64,000 nt of DNA from Eledone cirrhosa (Eukaryota). Location: the NCBI GenBank assembly GCA_964016885.1, contig OZ024764.1, forward strand, positions 16,244,001 to 16,308,000. Reading direction: 5' to 3'. Made by a program: the position numbers and the translations under genes. The notes under the pieces were generated by a model. That model was not told the DNA's origin and searched no databases. It worked only from the letters and a program-made list of their open reading frames with translations. Below, piece by piece: positions 2,936 to 61,436 of this stretch (position 1 is the first letter of the stretch; each line of letters opens with the position of its first letter).

Positions 2936-3100
2936 AAAAACTCATGCGAGGCGGGAGAGCAGGCCAGCATAAAGCCAGCCTGCAACGGTCCCGGCCGACC
3001 CCGCAACGATTCGAACTTCAGACACGATCGAGTGGTCATGCCATACCGAAGTACGACAGCGAAGCCAGAAACGCTACGTGCAGCGCCACGCACAAGCCGC
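2936..3100 (-). ncRNA. Candidate structured Pol III-type ncRNA, copy 1 (~165 nt), family unknown
   Basis: Minus strand: TATAAGTA begins at 3131, 31 nt upstream of G3100. B box GTTCGAATC (3016-3008). 5' CUUGUGCGUGGCG pairs with 3' CGCCUCGCAUGAG, followed by T5 (2940-2936). Internal hairpin GCAGGCUGGC-UUUAU-GCUGGCCUGC. GC-rich island in AT-rich DNA. Confidence 0.5.
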
Positions 3101-3164
3101 AATTCTACAGAGTCAAATAGGCATACTTATAGCTAACATTTTACTTCTTTTTTAAAAAAAAAAG

Positions 3165-3227
3165 AAACGGAAAGAAAGCAAGATAACACGACATATTCCG
3201 AGTGTTATCTCGTTTTCTTTCCGTTTC
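3165..3227. repeat. Imperfect inverted repeat (~26-bp arms), short version of the 4871-5052 hairpin
   Basis: GAAACGGAAAGAAAGCAAGATAACAC ... GTGTTATCTCGTTTTCTTTCCGTTTC. Confidence 0.8.
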
Positions 3228-4656
3228 TCTTTCTATATAAATATAACGGGATATATAGCCATTAAGGAACTGCTAGTGTTTTGTACATATATAACGGGAT
3301 ATACACAAATAGAAGCCAGGGAATATGTAGTAAGGGGTTGACTTATATAGGGAGTCAATAGTTTGACCATTTTCGCCAACTTCAAATTCTACGTAAATAA
3401 GGTTCGCATTTTTGCCCACTTCTCAGACATAAGATAGCGAGGAGGGTCACCTTATATTCGAGTATTGTGTACATCTATTCTTGTTAGACTAGACCGGCAT
3501 CATCAGGCTGTGATGGTCCTCAGGGCACTGCTGTCAATCGTCTTTGTGAGGGGCTACGTTTCTGCTCCATAGAGAAGAAGACTGATGCATCTTTTCAGAA
3601 CAATTAATATGTAGGTAACATAGCCTTAGAGAGATCTGTATTTGTAATAGTTAGTATCGATTTGGGTAATCTTAAGACCATGATTCCAATCATCAATATA
3701 TGTATTGATTAAACCTAAATATAGTATATAAAGAAGTGGATTTTAAAATATGCAATGATAGTGTCGAGAGAAGGTTGGCTGAATATGAAGTGGTACTTCT
3801 AACAATGTACCACTATGAATAAGACAGAAGGCGGTGTATGTAGATAGAATGTTTAGTTTTCCTGAGTATGAAGGGGTTTTAGTTATTATTCTTAGTAAAA
3901 AGACGGTTATATTATACATATACGTCTCTAACATTCCTCCTGTATATGAAGGGTAGTGAAATATATTCTTGTGTCTCAGGAATAACTACGTGTTTATCGA
4001 TGAATTTAAGGGACAACTAAAACATTACATACCTCTTTAGAAGAATGAAGGTGTATATATAAATGTAGCTTTATATGTGTATATTGATCTAGATAGGAAA
4101 CGTTTCTTCCAGTGTATGGATTATAGAGGTGAATGCATACACTAAAGAATGTTAATATATATCTAAGACTGTATTTTCGAGTGTTTAGCAATGAATTAAA
4201 ATATACATGGCAAATAAAGCGTTCGTACAGGTAAATTAGAGGGTATTTTACCTCAGCTAAAGAACATTTATATATATATAAATCTAGTTTTGTGTGTATT
4301 TAGGTTTAAAAAAAACAATATGTACGTCTCTAGAATCTTTCTGTATATAGAATAATTGTTTCTACTTTTGGCACAAGGCCAGCAATTATCCAGTGCATTA
4401 CTGGTACTTTATTTTATCGACCCCATAAGGATGAAAGGCATATAGAATAATGTATGTCTGTGAGTGTATATACGGCAAATAAAACATTACATGCCTCTCA
4501 CCATTAGTATAATATCCAGACTGATTCTATCAAATTACACGAGTAAATCCAAACGATGTTAACAGTTTAATTCAATAAAGAAGAATGACAACAAACGAGA
4601 ATAGTTCCAATCAGGGGCAAGTAATTCAAACGATAACTCTCGGCGAATTTTTTAGT

Positions 4657-4805
4657 AAAACTCAATGCGAGGTGGGGACGCAGGCCAGCATAAAGCCGGG
4701 CTGCCGCCGCAACGATTCGATCTTCAGACACATAGAATGGTCATGCCATACCGAAGTACGACAGCGAAGCCCGAAACGTTACGTGCAGCGCCATGCACAG
4801 AGCGC
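4657..4805 (-). ncRNA. Candidate structured ncRNA, diverged copy 2 (~149 nt)
   Basis: Paralogue of 2936-3100. TATAAGTA at 4836, again 31 nt upstream of a G (4805). The ~55-nt core differs at only 2 positions, the UUUAU-loop hairpin is kept, one short helix is deleted, it ends in T4, and the B box is degenerate (GATCGAATC). Confidence 0.42.
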
Positions 4806-4870
4806 AGCTCTACTGAGTAAATTAGTCATACTTATAGTTAGAATTTTATTTATTAAAAAAATATATATAT

Positions 4871-5052
4871 AGAAACGGAATGAAGACGAGATAACTGAGG
4901 GCGTGGAGAAATATCTCTTTCTGAATATATTTCGTATGGTGAGAGTTGAGATCTCTACCGAATAATTATCAATATTATACTTCGTCTCCGAAATATTTTC
5001 AGAAAGAAATTACTTTTTCACGACCGTGTTACCTTACTTTCATCCCGTTTCT
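4871..5052. repeat. Long imperfect inverted repeat / MITE-like hairpin
   Basis: AGAAACGGAATGAAG...TCTTTCTGAATATATTTCG mirrors CGAAATATTTTCAGAAAGA...TTCATCCCGTTTCT. Confidence 0.7.
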
Positions 5053-6469
5053 ATATGTAACAAGTTTAAACTACTAGTATTTAATACATATATACAGAAC
5101 AATAAGTATATTTACTTCAAGATAGTAAGGTTTATGTTAATACAGAAAATAAAAAATGCAAACCATCGATCTTAGTAATTAGTATCAATCACTAATTATC
5201 TATTTTCGTAATAAGCATCTTAAGACCATGATTTCCTTCATCGATATGTGATTAGACCAAAATTTAGTATAATATATAAAGACTGTTCTCAGCTTATGAC
5301 CAGTTTGCTTGGTGTTAAGTGTCTGAGAGTACAAGACTCTCCCTGGATAGTACGCTGGTCTACCACAGGACTAACTCCTCGGCTGTGAGTACTGGAGCAA
5401 TGTGATGAATGCAGAACTTCCAAACTGTGAGAGTTACATGTATGCATGGACCTGCAACTCCTAAGGGAGTCATACAGGCCACACATTGACATACAGTATT
5501 TCTAGGGCACTTTTTAAAACCTGGCAGACCCATCTCCTCTCCAGGTCTGAATACAGCAGATTTCTTCCAGAGAAACAGAAGAATCAACCTCAATACTAGA
5601 CTGGTACTTTGTTTTATCAACCTCAAATGGATGAAAGGCAAAGTTGACCTCAGCAGGATTTTAATTCAGAGAACTGAAGGCATTCTGTTACATTCATATA
5701 TACATACTTACTTTGTCTAATAAACAAAACATCTTCTCTCTCTACACATAACATATAAAGCTACATTTATATAAACCTCTTCTAAGAAATTAAACCTACT
5801 CTAGACTTACACATAGATACAGTTATATATAAATACTTACCTTGTCAAATAAACACAACTAAATCTTCTCTAGTCAGACACACAAAGCTACATTTATATA
5901 AACATTCTTCTCTACAAAAGAGGATCAGCTGAAAAGCTCATAGGCTGGCTTTGAAGAAGTGATGCTAGAACTGCGAAATATTGTGGTTTGGTTCATTATC
6001 ATAGGACTTGGTGGAGCAATCAAAATTCACTGCCAACTCATGTACAACTTTATGATGTTCTTGATTCATCGGTGAAAAAGAATGACTCTGATAGTTCTGT
6101 TTCATGTGAGGAAGACAAAAGGAAACCTTCAGAGTGTGCATTGAGCAATATGGGATATTTCTAGAATGTAACTAATGCCAACTTGAATCATCCTTGGACA
6201 TCATCATACATAGTATATATAGTGTGTTTAGTACAGTGTAGTTGTAGCTAACTAGGTATTTGGTTTTATGAAATGAAAGGGACAAAAAAACAAACTATAT
6301 ATATACACTGATACTTCAATGTGTTATAAGCAATCCAATACCACTGTTGGATACATAAAGTGCTTAATCCTGCTTACACCAAAGTTCATGGATTAAGGTG
6401 GTGCAAACACAACACTTAAATAAAGGAAACAATATATGGCCATAGTACAGAAAATTCTTATAATATATA

Positions 6470-18352: not shown

Positions 18353-19372
18353 TTAGGCTTCTATATGAGTACGTACATGATTTGATAAGGTATCTTTTCT
18401 CGAGAATGATTTACCACAGTTATTACATTGATAAGGTCTTTCTCCTGTATGGATACGCTTGTGTCTAGTTAAGCCATCACATTTAATAAATGATATACCA
18501 CAGACATCACAGTGATATGGTTTCTCTCCTGTATGACTACGTATATGAATAGTTAAAGTACTACCTTCAGTGAATGATTTACCACAGATATCACAGTGAT
18601 ATGGTTTCTCTCCTGTATGGACACGCTTGTGAAGATTTAACTGACCACAATTAGAGAATGATTTACCACAGATATCACAGTGATATGGTTTCTCTCCAGT
18701 ATGAATGTGTTTGTGAGTATTTAAACTACTACGTTTACTGAATGATCTACCACAGATATCACAGTGATATGGTTTCTCTCCTGTATGAATACGCTTGTGA
18801 GTGCTTAGGTTACTATTCATAAAGAATGATTTACCACAGATATCACAGTGATATGGTTTCTCTCCACTATGAATGCGTTTGTGTCCACTTAAACTACCAC
18901 CTTCAGCAAATGATTTACCACAGATATCACAATGATATGGTTTCTCTCCTGTATGAATACGTTTGTGAATAGTTAAGTCACCGCTTCGAGAGAATGATTT
19001 ACCACAAATATCGCAGTGAAATGGTTTCTCTCCTGTATGAAGACGCTTGTGCGTAGTTAAGCTATCACATTTAGAGAATGATTTACCACAGATATCACAA
19101 AGATATGGTTTCTCTCCAGTATGAATGCGTTTGTGAGTAGTCAAGTTTTCACCTTTAGAGAATGATTTACCGCAAATATCACAGTGATATGGTTTCTCTC
19201 CTGTATGAATACGTTTGTGAATGTTTAGGGAACCATTTGTAAAGAATGATTTACCACAGATATTACAGTGATATGGTTTCTCTCCTGTATGAATACGTTT
19301 GTGAATAGTTAAACTACTACTTGCAGTGAATGATTTACCACAGACATCACACTGGTAAGATAATTTCTCCAT
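18353..19372 (-). CDS. C2H2 zinc-finger protein, 12 tandem fingers, no KRAB domain seen (339 aa from ATG 19372)
   Basis: Uninterrupted ORF with 12 x CxxC..H..H joined by TGEKPY-type linkers; single coding exon; candidate acceptor tttcag ahead of 19693. Confidence 0.93.
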
Positions 19373-19926
19373 CTTTTTCAATATCTCTTTGTGAATAATT
19401 AAGCCTTTAATTTTTTCATATAATCAAATTTTTCCACAATTTTCCTTCTCTCAGAATATAAATATTTCGTCTCAGCTATATTTCCATCAACAGGGATTTT
19501 TGTTAATATCTGAAGATCTTTCAACCCTTTTTGTAAATTGATCCAAGTTTAATTACAATAAAACATCTTGTAATATGAAGAGAAATGTTGCTATTAATCT
19601 CAGTTGTGAGGAAATATTCCACCATAGATTTATATAAACAGGATTATATCTTTTCTATATAACTGTACACTTTAGTCAATGTCATCTGATACTCTGAAAT
19701 ATTAAAGAAACAGTATGAGAGATAATAGAGAATATTTAAAAAGTAAAGATTTAATAATTGTTTCTACGTTAGGCACAAGGCCAGCAATTACCCAGTGTAT
19801 TACTGGTACTTTATTTTATCGACCTCGTAAGGATGAAAGGCAAAGTTAACCTCGAATAATGGTTTCTTATATAGGCAGCGTTGTTTCATCCATGTTGGTT
19901 ATGTCGGGTTGCATTGCCTGGATATA

Positions 19927-36065: not shown

Positions 36066-36280
36066 AATTTAATGCATCATGGAGTGATAATGCTAGATTG
36101 AGACAAGTGAAAGAAGTACAGTTAATTGGATCAAGGAAACTCGACTTGTGAGTGAAAGCTCTGTTTAAATTATTGATTCAGTGTGTGGAGACCTGCCCTA
36201 CTTTTGCTAGCAGAGAAAACAGACATTAACCCTTTCATGACCACATTTCTAATGAAATACACTCTGTTTCAATGAATTAA

Positions 36281-37558
36281 CTTTTTAGCATTCATATTAC
36301 TTTATATATACTATTGTATTTTCACAGTAAAGGCTTTACCTCACATAATACCTCACATAACATTTACATTACTCTATATATACTATTGTATTTTCACAGT
36401 AAAGGCTTTACCTCACATATCTCACATAACATTTACATTATATATACTATTGTATTTTCACAGTAAAGGCTTTACCTCACATAATATCTCACATAACATT
36501 TACATTACTCTATATATACTATTGTATTTTCACAGTAAAGGCTTTACCTCACATATCTCACATAACATTTACATTATATATACTATTGTATTTTCACAGT
36601 AAAGGCTTTACCTCACATAACATTTACATTACTCTATATATACTATTGTATTTTCACAGTAAAGGCTTTACCTCACATAACATTTACATTACTCTATATA
36701 TACTATTGTATTTTCACAGTAAAGGCTTTACCTCACATAATATCTCACATAACATTTACATTACTCTATATATACTATTGTATTTTCACAGTAAAGACTT
36801 TACCTCACATAATATCTCACATAACATTTACATTACTCTATATATACTATTGTATTTTCACAGTAAAGGCTTTACCTCACATAATACCTCACATAACATA
36901 TACATTACTCTATATATACTATTGTATTTTCACAGTAAAGGCTTTACCTCACATATCTCACATAACATTTACATTATATATACTATTGTATTTTCACAGT
37001 AAAGGCTTTACCTCACATAATATCTCACATAACATTTACATTACTCTATATATACTATTGTATTTTCACAGTAAAGGCTTTACCTCACATATCTCACATA
37101 ACATTTACATTATATATACTATTGTATTTTCACAGTAAAGGCTTTACCTCACATAACATTTACATTACTCTATATATACTATTGTATTTTCACAGTAAAG
37201 GCTTTACCTCACATAACATTTACATTACTCTATATATACTATTGTATTTTCACAGTAAAGGCTTTACCTCACATAATATCTCACATAACATTTACATTAC
37301 TCTATATATACTATTGTATTTTCACAGTAAAGACTTTACCTCACATAATATCTCACATAACATTTACATTACTCTATATATACTATTGTATTTTCACAGT
37401 AAAGGCTTTACCTCACAATATCGAATCTATGAGATTTAGATATTATTTATTTTGAGAACAATACCTTAAGATCAATATGAGTGGCTGGTTACAGCCGGTT
37501 TGAACAGAAACAGGTGAGATAGTTCTGGACGGATATGGCCAGTTTAAATGCTAAAGGG
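36281..37558 (+). mobile_element. piggyBac-type MITE with internal 72-bp VNTR
   Basis: Degenerate TTAA-CTTTTTAGCATT left end and AATGCTAAAGGG right end; same body as 50741-52178. Confidence 0.8.
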
Positions 37559-44478: not shown

Positions 44479-44680
44479 CTAAATTATAGAAAAACATTGT
44501 CAACTAGAGATGAGGTCCAGAGCAGCATTGGATTTAGACCGGGGGGGGGGGGGCACTTCAGGTTTTAGAAGCCCCTCATACGCAAAAAATTATAATACAC
44601 AACATACCCCCCAATTTTACATATCAAAGTTAGCTTGGCGTAAGTAATTGGAAATGAAAAGTTATACATATAGGTATTAA

Positions 44681-46080
44681 CCCTTGAGCATTTACATTAC
44701 TCTATATATACTTGTTTCTACTTTAGGCACAAGGCCAGCAATTATCCAGTGCATTACTGGTACATTACTCTATATATACTATTGTATTTTCACAGTAAAG
44801 GCTTCACCTCACATAATACCTCACATAACATTTACATTACTCTATATATACTATTGTATTTTCACAGTAAAGGCTTTACCTCACATAATATCTCACATAA
44901 CATTTACATTACTCTATATATACTATTGTATTTTCACAGTAAAGGCTTTACCTCACATAATATCTCACATAACATTTACATTACTCTATATATACTATTG
45001 TATTTTCACAGTAAAGGTTTTACCTCACATAATATTTACATTACTCTATATATACTATTGTATTTTCACAGTAAAGGCTTTACCTCACATAATATCTCAC
45101 ATAACATTTACATTACTCTATATATACTATTGTATTTTCACAGTAAAGGCTTTACCTCACATAATATCTCACATAACATTTACATTACTCTATATATACT
45201 ATTGTATTTTCACAGTAAAGGCTTTACCTCACATAATATCTCACATAACATTTACATTACTCTATATATACTATTGTATTTTCACAGTAAAGGCTTTACC
45301 TCACATAATATCTCACATAACATTTACATTACTCTATATATACTATTGTATTTTCACAGTAAAGGCTTTACCTCACATAATATCTCACATAACATTTACA
45401 TTACTCTATATATACTATTGTATTTTCACAGTAAAGGCTTTACCTCACATAATATCTCACATAACATTTACATTACTCTATATATACTATTGTATTGTCA
45501 CAGTAAAGACTTTACCTCACATAATATCTCACATAACATTTACATTACTCTATATATACTATTGTATTTTCACAGTAAAGGCTTTACCTCACATAATATC
45601 TCACATAACATTTACATTACTCTATATATACTATTGTATTTTCACAGTAAAGGCTTTACCTCACATAATATCTCACATAACATTTACATTACTCTATATA
45701 TACTATTGTATTTTCACAGTAAAGGCTTTACCTCACATAATATCTCACATAACATTTACATTACTCTATATATACTATTGTATTGTCACAGTAAAGACTT
45801 TACCTCACATAATATCTCACATAACATTTACATTACTCTATATATACTATTGTATTTTCACAGTAAAGGCTTTACCTCACATAATATCTCACATAACATT
45901 TACATTACTCTATATATACTATTGTATTGTCACAGTAAAGGCTTTACCTCACATAATATCTCACATAACATTTACATTACTCTATATATACTATTGTATT
46001 TTCACAGTAAAGGCTTTACCTCACATAATATCAAATCTATGAGATTTTGATATTATTTATTTTGAGAACAATACCTTAAC
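44681..46080 (+). mobile_element. piggyBac-type VNTR MITE (~18 units), right end missing, SINE fragment inserted at ~44712-44763
   Basis: TTAA-CCCTTGAGCATTTA left end; 72-bp units. Confidence 0.85.
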
Positions 46081-46138
46081 ATTGGTGTTTGGAACATAAC
46101 TTAACAAAGGTTCTTACCCCACCACCACCACATCATAC

Positions 46139-50740: not shown

Positions 50741-52178
50741 CCCTTTAGCATTTAAACCAGCTGTATCCGGCCAGAATTCTCTCACCTCTCTTTTCAAACC
50801 TGCTGTAACCGGTTGTTCATACTGATGTTAAGGTATTGTTCTCAAAATAAATATCAAAATCTCATAGATTCGATATTATGTGAGGTAAAGTCTTTACTGT
50901 GAAAATACAATAGTATATATAGAGTAATGTAAATGTTATGTGAGATATTATGTGAGGTAAAGCCTTTACTGTGAAAATACAATAGTATATATAGAGTAAT
51001 GTAAATGTTATGTGAGGTATTACGTGAGGTAAAGCCTTTACTGCGAAAATACAATAGTATATATAGAGTAATGTAGATGTAATGTAGATATTATGTGAGA
51101 TATTATGTGAGGTAAAGCCTTTACTGTGAAAATGCAATAGTATATATAGAGTAATGTAAATGTTATGTGAGATATTATGTGAGGTAAAGCCTTTACTGTG
51201 AAAATACAATAGTATATATAGAGTAATGTAAATGTTATGTGAGGTATTATGTGAGGTAAAGCCTTTACTGTGAAAATACAATAGTATATATAGAGTAATG
51301 TAAATGTTATGTGAGGTATTATGTGAGGTAAAGCCTTTACTGTGACAATACAATAGTATATATAGAGTAATGTAAATGTTATGTGAGATATTATGTGAGG
51401 TAAAGCCTTTACTGTGAAAATGCAATAGTATATATAGAGTAATGTAAATGTTATGTGAGATACTATGTGAGGTAAAGCCTTTACTGTGACAATACAATAG
51501 TATATATAGAGTAATGTAAATGTTATGTGAGATATTATGTGAGGTAAAGCCTTTACTGTGACAATACAATAGTATATATAGAGTAATGTAAATGTTATGT
51601 GAGATATTATGTGAGGTAAAGCCTTTACTGTGAAAATGCAATAGTATATATAGAGTAATGTAAATGTTATGTGAGATATTATGTGAAGTAAAGCCTTTAC
51701 TGTGAAAATGCAATAGTATATATAGAGTAATGTAAATGTTATGTGAGATATTATGTGAGGTAAAGCCTTTACTGTGAAAATACAATAGTATATATAGAGT
51801 AATGTAAATGTTATGTGAGATATTATGTGAGGTAAAGCCTTTACTGTGACAATACAATAGTATATATAGAGTAATGTAAATGTTATGTGAGATATTATGT
51901 GAGGTAAAGCCTTTACTGTGAAAATACAATAGTATATATAGAGTAATGTAAATGTTATGTGAGATATTATGTGAGGTAAAGCCTTTACTGTGACAATACA
52001 ATAGTATATATAGAGTAATGTAAATGTTATGTGAGATATTATGTGAGGTAAAGCCTTTACTGTGATAATACAATAGTATATATAGAGTAATGTAAATGTT
52101 ATGTGAGATATTATGTGAGGTAAAGCCTTTACTGTGACAATACAATAGCATATATAGAGTAATGTAAATGCTAAAGGG
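50741..52178 (-). mobile_element. Complete piggyBac-type MITE with ~18 internal 72-bp repeats
   Basis: TTAA (50737-50740) + CCCTTTAGCATTTA ... TAAATGCTAAAGGG + TTAA (52179-52182): perfect 14-bp TIR and TTAA target. Confidence 0.9.
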
Positions 52179-52372
52179 TTAAAATCTATTTTCCAAATGT
52201 ATTAATATGTGGGGGGGGGGGGGGGGGGGGGTATATAAAACAAAAGAAAAACAGCTTATAAATAATAGATAAACATAAATATAAATAAAAATATATTTAT
52301 TACTAATTTTCTTTTGTTGATTAATTTATACATTAAAACATGCCGTTAATGAGGCTAACGAAGGCAAAGTAA

Positions 52373-55500: not shown

Positions 55501-58500
55501 TGCAGAGCACTAGAAGTTGATGGAAACCGCGGAGTGGGGAGACCCAAGATGACCTGGGATGAGGTGATAAAAGCCGACCTTACCCAATTACACCTCTCAA
55601 AGACAATGACACACGACCGTGACTTCTGGCGTCACGCAGTAATACAGAGTACCCGACCTCCCATGGGTACAAGCTGAAGCATATAGACAATATGCCCCCA
55701 CACCCCCCACCGCAAGGTGGTCGTGGAGGTGCCACGGCAAAAAAGCACCCAGCCCACACTGTAAAGTGGACATGTAGGCGCCACGAAAAAGCACCCAGCA
55801 CTCACTGTAAATGAGGTTGGTGTTAGGAAGGGCATCCAGCTGTAGAAATCAAGCCAAATCAGTTCCTGTATGAGCAAGGCATGGTCAGCCGACCAGACAC
55901 TGCCCACAACAGGACAACCCGTCTAACCCATGCTAGCGTGGAAGAACGGACGTAAAACGGTGATGATGATGATGATGATGATGAATTTCTACAAATTTCA
56001 TACTTAACTTTCATACAAAATTCATAAAAGATATTGGGTTGTCAAGTAGGAAATTTGTAGAAATTTGTTGTTTTTCTACTAATTTCTACAAATTTCATAC
56101 TTAACTTTCATACAAAATTCATAAATGATATTGGGTTGTCAAGTAGGAAATTTGTAGAAATTTGTTGTTTTTCTACTAATTTCTACAAATTTCATACTTA
56201 ACTTTCATACAAAATTCATAAATGATATTGGGTTGTCAAGTAGGAAATTTGTAAAAATTTTTTTTTTTTTTTCTAATTTCTACAAATTTCATACTTAACT
56301 TTCATACAAAATTCATAAATGATATTGGGTTGTCAAGTAGGAAATTTGTAGAAATTTTTTTTTTTTTTTTTAATTTCTACAAATTTCATACTTAACTTTC
56401 ATACAAAATTCATAAATGATATTGGGTTGTCAAGTAGGAAATTTGTAGAAATTTTTTTTTTTTTTTTTAATTTCTACAAATTTCATACTTAACTTTCATA
56501 CAAAATTCATAAATGATATTGGGTTGTCAAGTAGGAAATTTGTAGAAATTTGTTGTTTTTCTACTAATTTCTACAAATTTCATACTTAACTTTCATACAA
56601 AATTCATAAATGATATTGGGTTGTCAAGTAGGAAATTTGTAAAAATTTTTTTTTTTTTTTCTAATTTCTACAAATTTCATACTTAACTTTCATACAAAAT
56701 TCATAAATGATATTGGGTTGTCAAGTAGGAAATTTGTAGAAATTTTTTTTTTTTTTTTTAATTTCTACAAATTTCATACTTAACTTTCATACAAAATTCA
56801 TAAATGATATTGGGTTGTCAAGTAGGAAATTTGTAGAAATTTGTTGTTTTTCTACTAATTTCTACAAATTTCATACTTAACTTTCATACAAAATTCATAA
56901 ATGATATTGGGTTGTCAAGTAGGAAATTTGTAGAAATTTTTTTTTTTTTTTCTAATTTCTACAAATTTCATACTTAACTTTCATACAAAATTCATAAATG
57001 ATATTGGGTTGTCAAGTAGGAAATTTGTAGAAATTTTTTTTTTTTTTTTTAATTTCTACAAATTTCATACTTAACTTTCATACAAAATTCATAAATGATA
57101 TTGGGTTGTCAAGTAGGAAATTTGTAGAAATTTGTTGTTTTTCTACTAATTTCTACAAATTTCATACTTAACTTTCATACAAAATTCATAAATGATATTG
57201 GGTTGTCAAGTAGGAAATTTGTAAAAATTTTTTTTTTTTTTTCTAATTTCTACAAATTTCATACTTAACTTTCATACAAAATTCATAAATGATATTGGGT
57301 TGTCAAGTAGGAAATTTGTAGAAATTTTTTTTTTTTTTTTTAATTTCTACAAATTTCATACTTAACTTTCATACAAAATTCATAAATGATATTGGGTTGT
57401 CAAGTAGGAAATTTGTAGAAATTTGTTGTTTTTCTACTAATTTCTACAAATTTCATACTTAACTTTCATACAAAATTCATAAATGATATTGGGTTGTCAA
57501 GTAGGAAATTTGTAGAAATTTTTTTTTTTTTTTTTAATTTCTACAAATTTCATACTTAACTTTCATACAAAATTCATAAATGATATTGGGTTGTCAAGTA
57601 GGAAATTTGTAGAAATTTGTTGTTTTTCTACTAATTTCTACAAATTTCATACTTAACTTTCATACAAAATTCATAAATGATATTGGGTTGTCAAGTAGGA
57701 AATTTGTAGAAATTTTTTTTTTTTTTTTTAATTTCTACAAATTTCATACTTAACTTTCATACAAAATTCATAAATGATATTGGGTTGTCAAGTAGGAAAT
57801 TTGTAGAAATTTGTTGTTTTTCTACTAATTTCTACAAATTTCATACTTAACTTTCATACAAAATTCATAAATGATATTGGGTTGTCAAGTAGGAAATTTG
57901 TAGAAATTTTTTTTTTTTTTTTTAATTTCTACAAATTTCAAACTTAACTTTCATACAAAATTCATAAATGATATTGGGTTGTCAAGTAGGAAATTTGTAA
58001 AAATTTTTTTCTTTTTTTCTAATTTCTACAAATTTCATACTTAACTTTCATACAAAATTCATAAATGATATTGGGTTGTCAAGTAGGAAATTTGTAGAAA
58101 TTTTTTTTTTTTTTTTAATTTCTACAAATTTCATACTTAACTTTCATACAAAATTCATAAATGATATTGGGTTGTCAAGTAGGAAATTTGTAGAAATTTG
58201 TTGTTTTTCTACTAATTTCTACAAATTTCATACTTAACTTTCATACAAAATTCATAAATGATATTGGGTTGTCAAGTTGGAAATTTGTAAAAATTTTTTT
58301 TTTTTTTTCTAATTTCTACAAATTTCATACTTAACTTTCATACAAAATTCATAAATGATATTGGGTTGTCAAGTAGGAAATTTGTAGAAATTTTTTTTTT
58401 TTTTTTTAATTTCTACAAATTTCAAACTTAACTTTCATACAAAATTCATAAATGATATTGGGTTGTCAAGTAGGAAATTTGTAAAAATTTTTTTTTTTTT

Positions 58501-61436
58501 TTCTAATTTCTACAAATTTCATACTTAACTTTCATACAAAATTCATAAATGATATTGGGTTGTCAAGTAGGAAATTTGTAGAAATTTTTTTTTTTTTTTT
58601 TAATTTCTACAAATTTCATACTTAACTTTCATACAAAATTCATAAATGATATTGGGTTGTCAAGTAGGAAATTTGTAGAAATTTGTTGTTTTTCTACTAA
58701 TTTCTACAAATTTCATACTTAACTTTCATACAAAATTCATAAATGATATTGGGTTGTCAAGTTGGAAATTTGTAAAAATTTTTTTTTTTTTTTCTAATTT
58801 CTACAAATTTCATACTTAACTTTCATACAAAATTCATAAATGATATTGGGTTGTCAAGTAGGAAATTTGTAGAAATTTGTTGTTTTTCTACTAATTTCTA
58901 CAAATTTCATACTTAACTTTCATACAAAATTCATAAATGATATTGGGTTGTCAAGTAGGAAATTTGTAGAAATTTTTTTTTTTTTTCTAATTTCTACAAA
59001 TTTCCTACTTGACAACCCAATATCATTTATGAATTTTGTATGAAAGTTAAGTATGAAATTTGTAGAAATTAGTAGAAAAACAACAAATTTCTACAAATTT
59101 CCTACTTGACAACCCAATATCATTTATGAATTTTGTATGAAAGTTAAGTATGAAATTTGTAGAAATTTGTTGTTTTTCTACTAATTTCTACAAATTTCAT
59201 ACTTAACTTTCATACAAAATTCATAAATGATATTGGGTTGTCAAGTAGGAAATTTGTAAAAATTTTTTTTTTTTTTCTAATTTCTACAAATTTCATACTT
59301 AACTTTCATACAAAATTCATAAATGATATTGGGTTGTCAAGTAGGAAATTTGTAAAAATTTTTTTTTTTTTTTCTAATTTCTACAAATTTCATACTTAAC
59401 TTTCATACAAAATTCATAAATGATATTGGGTTGTCAAGTTGGAAATTTGTAAAAATTTTTTTTTTTTTTTCTAATTTCTACAAATTTCATACTTAACTTT
59501 CATACAAAATTCATAAATGATATTGGGTTGTCAAGTAGGAAATTTGTAGAAATTTGTTGTTTTTCTACTAATTTCTACAAATTTCATACTTAACTTTCAT
59601 ACAAAATTCCTAAATGATATTGGGTTGTCAAGTAGGAAATTTGTAGAAATTTGTTGTTTTTCTACTAATTTCTACAAATTTCATACTTAACTTTCATACA
59701 AAATTCATAAATGATATTGGGTTGTCAAGTAGGAAATTTGTAGAAATTTGTTGTTTTTCTACTAATTTCTACAAATTTCATACTTAACTTTCATACAAAA
59801 TTCCTAAATGATATTGGGTTGTCAAGTAGGAAATTTGTAGAAATTTGTTGTTTTTCTACTAATTTCTACAAATTTCATACTTAACTTTCATACAAAATTC
59901 CTAAATGATATTGGGTTGTCAAGTAGGAAATTTGTAGAAATTTGTTGTTTTTCTACTAATTTCTACAAATTTCATACTTAACTTTCATACAAAATTCATA
60001 AATGATATTGGGTTGTCAAGTAGGAAATTTGTAGAAATTTGTTGTTTTTCTACTAATTTCTACAAATTTCATACTTAACTTTCATACAAAATTCCTAAAT
60101 GATATTGGGTTGTCAAGTAGGAAATTTGTAGAAATTTGTTGTTTTTCTACTAATTTCTACAAATTTCATACTTAACTTTCATACAAAATTCATAAATGAT
60201 ATTGGGTTGTCAAGTAGGAAATTTGTAAAAATTTTTTTTTTTTTTTCTAATTTCTACAAATTTCATACTTAACTTTCATACAAAATTCATAAATGATATT
60301 GGGTTGTCAAGTTGGAAATTTGTAAAAATTTTTTTTTTTTTTTCTAATTTCTACAAATTTCATACTTAACTTTCATACAAAATTCATAAATGATATTGGG
60401 TTGTCAAGTAGGAAATTTGTAGAAATTTGTTGTTTTTCTACTAATTTCTACAAATTTCATACTTAACTTTCATACAAAATTCCTAAATGATATTGGGTTG
60501 TCAAGTAGGAAATTTGTAGAAATTTTTTTTTTTTTTTTTAATTTCTACAAATTTCATACTTAACTTTCATACAAAATTCATAAATGATATTGGGTTGTCA
60601 AGTAGGAAATTTGTAGAAATTTGTTGTTTTTCTACTAATTTCTACAAATTTCATACTTAACTTTCATACAAAATTCATAAATGATATTGGGTTGTCAAGT
60701 AGGAAATTTGTAAAAATTTTTTTTTTTTTTTCTAATTTCTACAAATTTCATACTTAACTTTCATACAAAATTCATAAATGATATTGGGTTGTCAAGTTGG
60801 AAATTTGTAAAAATTTTTTTTTTTTTTTCTAATTTCTACAAATTTCATACTTAACTTTCATACAAAATTCATAAATGATATTGGGTTGTCAAGTAGGAAA
60901 TTTGTAGAAATTTGTTGTTTTTCTACTAATTTCTACAAATTTCATACTTAACTTTCATACAAAATTCCTAAATGATATTGGGTTGTCAAGTAGGAAATTT
61001 GTAGAAATTTGTTGTTTTTCTACTAATTTCTACAAATTTCATACTTAACTTTCATACAAAATTCATAAATGATATTGGGTTGTCAAGTAGGAAATTTGTA
61101 GAAATTTGTTGTTTTTCTACTAATTTCTACAAATTTCATACTTAACTTTCATACAAAATTCCTAAATGATATTGGGTTGTCAAGTAGGAAATTTGTAGAA
61201 ATTTGTTGTTTTTCTACTAATTTCTACAAATTTCATACTTAACTTTCATACAAAATTCATAAATGATATTGGGTTGTCAAGTAGGAAATTTGTAAAAATT
61301 TTTTTTTTTTTTTCTAATTTCTACAAATTTCATACTTAACTTTCATACAAAATTCATAAATGATATTGGGTTGTCAAGTAGGAAATTTGTAGAAATATTT
61401 TTTTTTTTTCCTAATTTCTACAAATTTCATACTTAA
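52557..61436. repeat. 97-bp satellite (~60 units) in the last DHX37 intron, interrupted by the LINE
   Basis: Period 97 (52652, 52749). Each unit holds the 16-bp inverted repeat GAAATTTGTAGAAATT / AATTTCTACAAATTTC. Confidence 0.97.
52903..55983 (+). mobile_element. 5'-truncated RTE/RTE-X non-LTR retrotransposon (partial APE + RT + PHD-like finger)
   Basis: Frame open from 52903 (IISAYAPQ, GDFNGHVG) to 55677; RT motifs QGSVLSP and YSDD; CSVC..CPKC..HKRC finger; (GAT)n tail; apparent 5-bp TSD AATTT (52898-52902, 55984-55988). Confidence 0.96.

Follow-up and report, generated by a model that had tools for sequence, protein, structure and literature searches.

The 64,000-nucleotide stretch of DNA analysed here (the window) carries two GC-rich islands on its minus strand, which the initial annotation had read as a duplicated gene for a structured RNA with Pol III hallmarks, undescribed and possibly vault-like. 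This raises the question of whether the islands are genes, what kind of RNA they would encode, and how that RNA relates to described families.

Two related islands with a Pol III layout

Both islands are present and related: copy 1 runs from 3100 to 2936 and copy 2 from 4805 to 4657. The gene body has a GC content of 0.60 and a CpG observed/expected ratio of 1.22, compared to 0.35 and 0.51 for the window. Within the core from +14 to +68, the two copies mismatch at 2 of 55 positions, whereas the alignment of their flanks is rich in gaps, as had been described for a core of about 55 nt.

Copy 1 (2936–3100, minus strand) is a predicted 165-nt Pol III RNA gene with G3100 as +1; the terminal pairing modelled for the older type 4 (see below) suggests A3103/3104 as a possible alternative start. 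The TATA-like box TATAAGTA does stand exactly 31 nt upstream of a G in both copies, at 3131–3124 (−31/−24) and at 4836–4829 on the minus strand. Inside copy 1, an A-box-like element at 3078–3088 (+13 to +23) agrees with 6 of the 9 defined positions of the consensus TRGYnnARBGG (PMC7279448), and the B box GTTCGAATC, recognised by its motif at 3008–3016 (+85 to +93), also lies within the long arm helix of the predicted fold. Copy 2 (4657–4805, minus strand) aligns as a body of about 150 nt with 15 nt missing and a variant B box, GATCGAATC, at 4714–4722. Oligo-T ends had been reported for both copies; they are there, with the qualification that the run of copy 2 is T4, not T5.

Upstream of copy 1, at about −60 to −130, the alignment places a DNA palindrome (3161–3230) that is part of the duplicated unit of the family. 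A longer form of this inverted repeat, delimited partly by eye, lies upstream of copy 2 at 4868–5055, with arms at about 4868–4884 and 5039–5055. The arms of both palindromes hold AGATAAC/GTTATCT, and the same motif recurs past the terminator. Elsewhere in the window, repeats include a TA/CA-rich satellite, a minisatellite (period about 72 bp) at several positions and 5.4 kb of a 97-bp tandem array (1–1130, 36276–37422, 44676–46082, 50872–52182 and 55984–61436).

A family of four subtypes in the genome

The window's own genome (3.0 Gb) was searched, with reversed-pattern controls for each motif. A DNA search returned 206 candidates, and the 40 that were scored were all 97–100% identical over 164–165 nt. 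A 23-nt core matched 107 times, the B-box motif 203 times, and an older hairpin variant 100 times on 21 contigs, while each reversed control gave 0 matches. These motif counts (100–203) are lower bounds and the family total exceeds 200, so that the gene is not a duplicated pair but a multicopy family.

The copies fall into four subtypes with a common plan: a TATA-like box at −31, A and B boxes within the gene, and a T-run. For types 1–3, 118 copies were compiled from the matches listed, located on contigs C22, C23 and C25 and on two small scaffolds. Of these, 36 are type 2 and 82 are type-1-like, two divergent copies termed type 3 being counted with the latter. Type 4 is the older hairpin variant, for which 70 of the 100 copies were retrieved for analysis. 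Copy 1 of the window belongs to the young type 1, and copy 2 to type 2, where it is probably a relaxed or decaying paralogue. Many family copies are broken. Rearranged forms also occur. Two type-1 copies at locus L129 (C23:11.79 Mb) have their 3' arm swapped for an inverted core and would form a long perfect hairpin; three identical, shortened type-4 copies without the 3' arm lie in a 1574-bp tandem repeat (L214–L216, C21:18.51 Mb).

The promoter elements are retained across the four subtypes, in support of the proposed Pol III layout. TATAA is kept in 114 of the 118 copies of types 1–3 and in 79 of the 82 type-1 copies, the same number of which have an intact B box; TATA, A box, B box and T-run are all intact in 70/82 copies of type 1 and 24/36 of type 2. 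The A box matches weakly (6–7 of 9 positions) and the B box at 8 of 10, with an A–B spacing of about 60 nt. Judged from these motifs, the layout corresponds to a putative type-2 promoter with a −31/−24 box, an arrangement described for 4.5SH and 4.5SI RNA (PMC7279448). A U6-type octamer at about −75 was found in 4 of the 7 U6 loci shown vs none of the 118 family copies (the PSE was judged by eye). Type-3 Pol III RNAs (U6, U6atac, 7SK, Y, RNase P/MRP, tRNA-Sec) were rejected on the missing octamer and on the Rfam searches reported below.

Near-identical sequence, which is all that the index used can detect, occurs in sequencing runs of three organisms, each from a different study; one of the three may be the source of the genome searched. 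The contig from organism B, which takes in both body and flanks, shows 11 differences in 275 nt, and a contig of organism C (run X6) covers 2953–3096 with 7 differences, its ends being no marker of RNA ends. A contig of run X7 covers no part of the gene body, which does not prove absence. Among the indexed holders of near-identical sequence there were no RNA runs, a result that says nothing on expression. One 22-nt family motif had 0 matches in metagenome contigs; viral contigs gave 8 motif matches, none of which was scored by the family model.

Predicted fold and covariation

Copy 1 folds better than its shuffled versions (z −3.58, 0/200 as good), as does copy 2 (z −2.42, 3/200). In the ensemble fold, the RNA ends are joined by a terminal stem (p ~1.0), the 3' arm of which lies with the T5 terminator at 2936–2948 and pairs with 3096–3089. 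Arm A (3002–3078), the most constrained part by fold and alignment, is closed at a three-way junction by a CGUARCG/CGUUGCG helix (p 0.86) with an inner CUUCG/UGAAG stem. Fold and subtype comparison both place an 8-bp hairpin at 3039–3058 (+43 to +62; p ~0.85), with a variable tetraloop that is UUCG in types 1–3 and UUAU or UUAA in type 4. Towards the 3' end, a 10-bp hairpin with a UUUAU loop (2959–2983) stands on a GGGA/UCCC stem; frequently deleted in paralogues, it is kept in copy 2 with the U-G to C-G change and the one new mismatch noted earlier.

Two helices of the fold first drawn by hand are not favoured by the ensemble. The apical stem ACUUCGG/CUGAAGU reaches p ~0.13, far below the +43 to +62 hairpin, and the GGUC/GACC helix p ~0.10. 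In an alignment of 85 distinct arm-A sequences, paired cells make up 96.5% for the hairpin, 89% for arm A and 76.6% for the apical stem; the two type-3 copies favour the apical stem instead.

Covariation is modest overall and is not proof of the fold. RNAalifold on the alignment of types 1–3 found double changes in none of 37 pairs. Seven pairs with a double change were observed vs 4.1 in shuffles (26/500), and double-change events on the tree number two only. In the +43 to +62 hairpin, one U-A/C-G double change distinguishes type 4 from types 1–3, on a deep branch. Single changes on internal branches kept pairing in 33 of 54 cases (25.9 expected), and changes are no rarer in paired than in unpaired columns. 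Two terminal-stem pairs with both sides apparently changed were not counted because they reflect an alignment-register effect. By eye, alignment columns 18/80 and 20/78 (window 3067/3013 and 3065/3015) show that subtypes pair either +34:+88 or +36:+86 and rarely both; one mismatch is therefore kept in the helix.

In type 4, arm A forms a long, near-continuous helix. Together with the high copy number and the germ-line transcription in the past discussed below, this could fit a Pol III precursor that Dicer would process to yield small guide RNAs, as is reportedly the case for a germline family in C. elegans. However, the helix ends in a three-way junction and not in a terminal loop, the 3' hairpin is merely 10 bp long and often deleted, and the Rfam searches gave no miRNA family match over the body. 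We regard such a precursor as highly improbable.

Constraint on the gene body

Among the 82 type-1 copies, 17 of 74 non-CpG sites vary between +1 and +100, compared to 85/101 upstream and 137/188 downstream. CpG sites behave likewise, varying at 10/26 positions in +1 to +100 vs 25/26 in the flanks. Taken copy by copy, the type-1 body is nearer than its flanks to the consensus in 70/81. When the motifs used in the search are excluded, 11/31 type-1 sites vary (Fisher p 5e-6, the sites being non-independent). By the same count, the 3' part (+101 to the end) is unconstrained, with 49/57 sites varying. In type 4, the body is nearer to the consensus in 60/61 copies; from the 70, seven that were truncated or had no flank and two tandem duplicates had been set aside. 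Type 2 shows no overall constraint, its body being less diverged than the flanks in 8/36 copies only.

Two biases favour the body in these comparisons: the copies were found via body motifs, and the AT-rich flanks align worse. Furthermore, the mates of convergent pairs (see below) are 0.030 apart, compared to 0.060 to all copies, and gene conversion between mates could mimic selection. A protein-coding reading was rejected because single-base indels are frequent in type 1.

Convergent pairs and mode of spread

Type 1 is found on three zinc-finger-cluster contigs, and its arrangement is strongly oriented. Neighbours less than 12 kb apart are convergent in 35 cases and divergent in 2, and none are on the same strand; 70 of the 82 copies stand in convergent pairs with a median gap of 7.0 kb. 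Most type-2 copies (29/36) lie at most 2 kb upstream of a type-1 copy on the same strand, as in the window; for window copy 1, no mate was found within the 20 kb retrieved alongside. Some pairs sit within long inverted arms (13 kb in one case), while in other pairs about 1 kb around the gene is all that is common to other loci and the DNA between the mates is unrelated. C2H2 zinc-finger ORFs occur near gene pairs. In the window, a 356-aa ORF at 18356–19423 (minus strand) has about ten C2H2 fingers (Pfam zf-C2H2). Helitron-like fragments were seen beside two pairs, at L187:3826–4335, where a Pif1 2B domain was confirmed, and at L034:3276–3788, which had no Pfam match.

Given the convergent layout, it may be asked whether the DNA rather than the RNA is what matters. 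Genes of tRNA type can act as insulators, and convergent pairs bound by TFIIIC and Pol III might serve as chromatin barriers or recombination anchors in C2H2 clusters, with the RNA as a by-product. The orientation bias, its persistence where the DNA between mates is unrelated, the zinc-finger ORFs nearby and the position of the A and B boxes inside the most constrained part are all compatible with such a role. On the other hand, constraint extends between the boxes and over helices that a promoter does not need, and inverted duplication alone yields convergent pairs, as the 13-kb arms illustrate. We consider a DNA role unlikely as the main explanation.

As for the mode of spread, 64 of the 70 type-4 copies align for more than 60 nt upstream of +1, at least two of them (L205, L263) through TA repeats only. 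The shared unit extends from about −230 to +400, trailing off with no end point in common. Ragged ends were seen in the 25 type-4 loci examined and in the alignments, and neither shared sharp termini nor terminal repeats bounding the unit were found, although old copies could have lost their ends. Because 64 of the 70 type-4 copies keep upstream flank, the sequence comparison indicates that the family spread by duplication of DNA including the promoter, and not as a SINE by retroposition. A SINE or MITE body would have implied thousands of dispersed copies with target-site duplications. What the genome holds instead are 100–203 motif matches (lower bounds), retained upstream flank, ragged ends, and clear direct repeats at two chimeras only.

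The same observations bear on the possibility that the family is a selfish or passive repeat without host function: a tRNA-derived element that travels within segmental duplications, or a rolling-circle element of non-autonomous type, either of them kept uniform by gene conversion. The many broken copies, the apparent neutrality of type 2, the shared upstream palindrome, the Pif1-helicase fragment near one pair and the closeness of pair mates would all be expected of it. Yet the unit lacks common sharp ends and bounding terminal repeats, CpGs are kept in the type-1 body and not in its flanks, and the conservation peak matches the predicted transcript, within which structure-compatible changes are present. 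These features make a selfish or passive repeat, in our judgement, improbable.

Retro-chimeras and probable past transcription

The upstream flank is missing from six or seven solitary copies of type 4, and two of the chimeric loci are clean. At L226, the two copies of an 11-bp repeat enclose, in order, two extra C, positions +1 to about +137 of the RNA and a full-length window SINE in the same orientation, the insert beginning 2 nt before +1. At L247, the RNA part starts at about +10, reaches the 3' end of the RNA and is joined to a full SINE; the repeat here measures 10 bp and overlaps in part with the end of the SINE. Three further loci (L205, L206, L261) have RNA parts joined to retroelement-like tails, with no clean repeat. 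Retrocopies of U6 formed with retrotransposons have been described (PMC4476161). The RNA–SINE chimeras within 10–11-bp target-site duplications lead us to infer germ-line transcription of the ancestral RNA, with a start at about +1. Since the two clean chimeras belong to the old type 4, they do not show present transcription of type 1.

Identity tests against known RNA families

The Rfam search of the whole window gave 0 matches at gathering level, and relaxed thresholds, applied to the window copies and eight paralogue loci, gave no meaningful match over the bodies. With the exception of a single lncRNA fragment within copy 1 (13.6 bits), the sub-threshold matches were to palindromes and repeats of the flanks. 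Together with the conservation of the type-1 body above its flanks and the past transcription indicated by the retro-chimeras, this bears out the earlier proposal of an undescribed structured RNA family. The literature searched, with most subscription journals, supplements and repeat libraries outside its scope, contained no description of the RNA, and an unnamed repeat model or annotation may exist.

Individual candidates were compared with the genome's own genes. ARAGORN found 0 tRNAs (cloverleaf with anticodon) in the window, and tRNA was rejected. At L005, the telomerase template, which we take to be the complement of TTAGGG, had 0 matches with one mismatch allowed. The earlier statement that no U6 or 7SK signature is present holds: separate U6 and 7SK genes were found, likeness to the genome's own U6 is nil, and the family has no Rfam match. 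In the reverse direction, the family model run on 11 loci found no tRNA, vault, U6 or 7SL gene. An origin from the 7SL/Alu domain, suggested by eye, was rejected, as 374/500 shuffles score as high against the genome's own 7SL, with z at most 1.7 for the 5' end. Comparison with the window SINE families was borderline (1–174 of 200 shuffles over 20 copies), with z of 0.9–4.2 for the SINE head.

The 5' part shows some likeness to tRNA-Arg(UCG), a link first picked by eye. Positions +1 to +45 give z of 2.1–3.7 in 6 of 8 copies in a post hoc comparison with nine other tRNA classes, 7SL, U6 and vault RNA. Over full length the likeness is weak, and the prediction that older copies would be nearer to tRNA-Arg over full length failed. 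Based on this comparison, we give about an even chance that the 5' 45 nt derive from tRNA-Arg(UCG).

In the course of these searches several other small-RNA loci came to light. A tandem array at C19:31.78–31.84 Mb (L071–L080) contains about 33 U6 genes of a variant form, the first 25 nt of which carry two changes. The octamer/PSE region of some units is replaced by a SINE that ends just 5' of the TATA. 7SL has 25 separate genome matches, and a tandem array of about 21 copies at C12:42.10–42.13 Mb (L169–L174) has CTCAAGTG at −31/−24. A single 7SK candidate (45 bits, TATA at −30) lies at C2:194.68 Mb (L283). Dispersed tRNA-like sequences at L149 and L151–L159, with nearly the same body, the same upstream flank and differing anticodons (Val, Ala, Thr and Asp calls), are probably a tRNA-carrying repeat.

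The suggestion of a vault-like RNA deserves separate consideration. Vault RNA resembles the family in its A and B boxes with an upstream TATA-like box, its paired ends and its oligo-U end, and a diverged second class of vault RNA, as vtRNA2-1 is in mammals, that binds TEP1 would be served by the same promoter type. The family also resembles the vault RNA of this genome locally, around UACUUCG, to a degree reached by 39/500 and 15/500 shuffles. However, the vault model RF00006 has no match over the window copies at E up to 10, while it gives 14 matches over the Rfam cut-off on contig C3. These 14 vault-RNA genes (C3:221.18–221.25 Mb, L081–L088) come in an 87-nt and a 93-nt type and have a TATA, paired ends and T-runs; the literature searched contained no cephalopod vault RNA. 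The family model was blank on the two vault loci searched. The vault-gene motif GGUUACUUCG lies near the 5' end in a panhandle, while the family has a partial form only, at +44 to +54, where UACUUCG at +48 caps a hairpin and is UACUUAU in type 4. Because separate vault genes exist on C3 and the motif is not kept in the older subtype, we do not regard the family as vault RNA, and a diverged second class is very unlikely.

Proposed function and comparison with known systems

Taken together, sequence comparison argues that the family is quite probably a transcribed and selected Pol III RNA. We favour, with somewhat better than even confidence, a putative lineage-specific Pol III family of more than 200 copies whose predicted product, a folded RNA of 165 nt, would serve as an abundant regulator that binds proteins, a role proposed by analogy with primate snaR-A or rodent 4.5S RNA. 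TFIIIC would bind the A and B boxes and place TFIIIB at the −31 box, and Pol III would start at about G3100 and stop at the T-run. The roughly 70 intact type-1 genes would be the RNA source, and types 2 and 4 would be older, decaying rounds of birth and death. With its ends closed by the terminal stem, the RNA could offer the imperfect long helix and three-way junction to double-stranded-RNA-binding proteins. Action as a protein decoy as the main function is a tentative extension of this analogy, which we would currently bet against. More speculative, and improbable as a whole, is an octopod-invented abundant RNA, made from about 70 intact genes that birth and death would maintain in inward-facing pairs of the zinc-finger clusters, that titrates double-stranded-RNA-binding proteins such as ADAR and is tied to cephalopod RNA editing or neural translation control.

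If the favoured reading is true, the roughly 70 intact genes would exceed the matches scored for 7SL (25), U6 (48) and vault RNA (14), all lower bounds, and would represent a major unannotated transcript class. Lineage-specific Pol III RNAs such as snaR, 4.5S and BC1/BC200 are known mostly from mammals, and a mollusc would have taken the same route independently, through a tRNA-type promoter, DNA amplification, and birth and death. The family offers a concrete target for probing in animals that are studied for RNA editing and zinc-finger expansion.

In its gene organisation, the family is most likely a putative lineage-specific type-2 Pol III RNA of the snaR/4.5S kind, whose A and B boxes, upstream box, T-run and DNA amplification are all found here. 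As described in PMC3045588, snaR-A of African great apes is a lineage-restricted, structured Pol III RNA of about 117 nt with A and B boxes, Alu-derived and arranged in tandem arrays, for which expression and binding to NF90 and ribosomes are demonstrated. Both systems multiplied through segmental duplications that share a core but vary in their flanks, and both have older relatives elsewhere in the genome. Compared by description, the present family differs in its length of 150–195 nt, its convergent pairs, the lack of a proven progenitor and older relatives that spread as DNA.

A second parallel is offered by the rodent 4.5SH and 4.5SI RNAs, which according to PMC7279448 are SINE-derived, 94–98 nt long and carried in tandem units of 4–5 kb, with hundreds of copies of 4.5SH. 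The family shares with 4.5SH the type-2 promoter, the −31/−24 box (TTCAAGTA in 4.5SH, TATAAGTA here) and a copy number in the hundreds, and is unlike 4.5SH and 4.5SI in its A–B spacing, its multibranch fold and its inverted pairs. Adenovirus VA RNA and the EBERs of EBV measure about 160–170 nt and have a terminal stem. They likewise use a type-2 promoter (PMC7279448). They resemble the family in promoter, size and terminal stem, whereas the family is a chromosomal multigene family with no viral ORFs in the stretches examined. Finally, octopus genomes hold tRNA-derived SINEs (PMC4824008), which have tRNA-type boxes as the family does, and the family forms chimeras with the window SINE; in contrast to these elements, it numbers hundreds and not thousands of copies, keeps its upstream flank and has no retroelement tail of its own.
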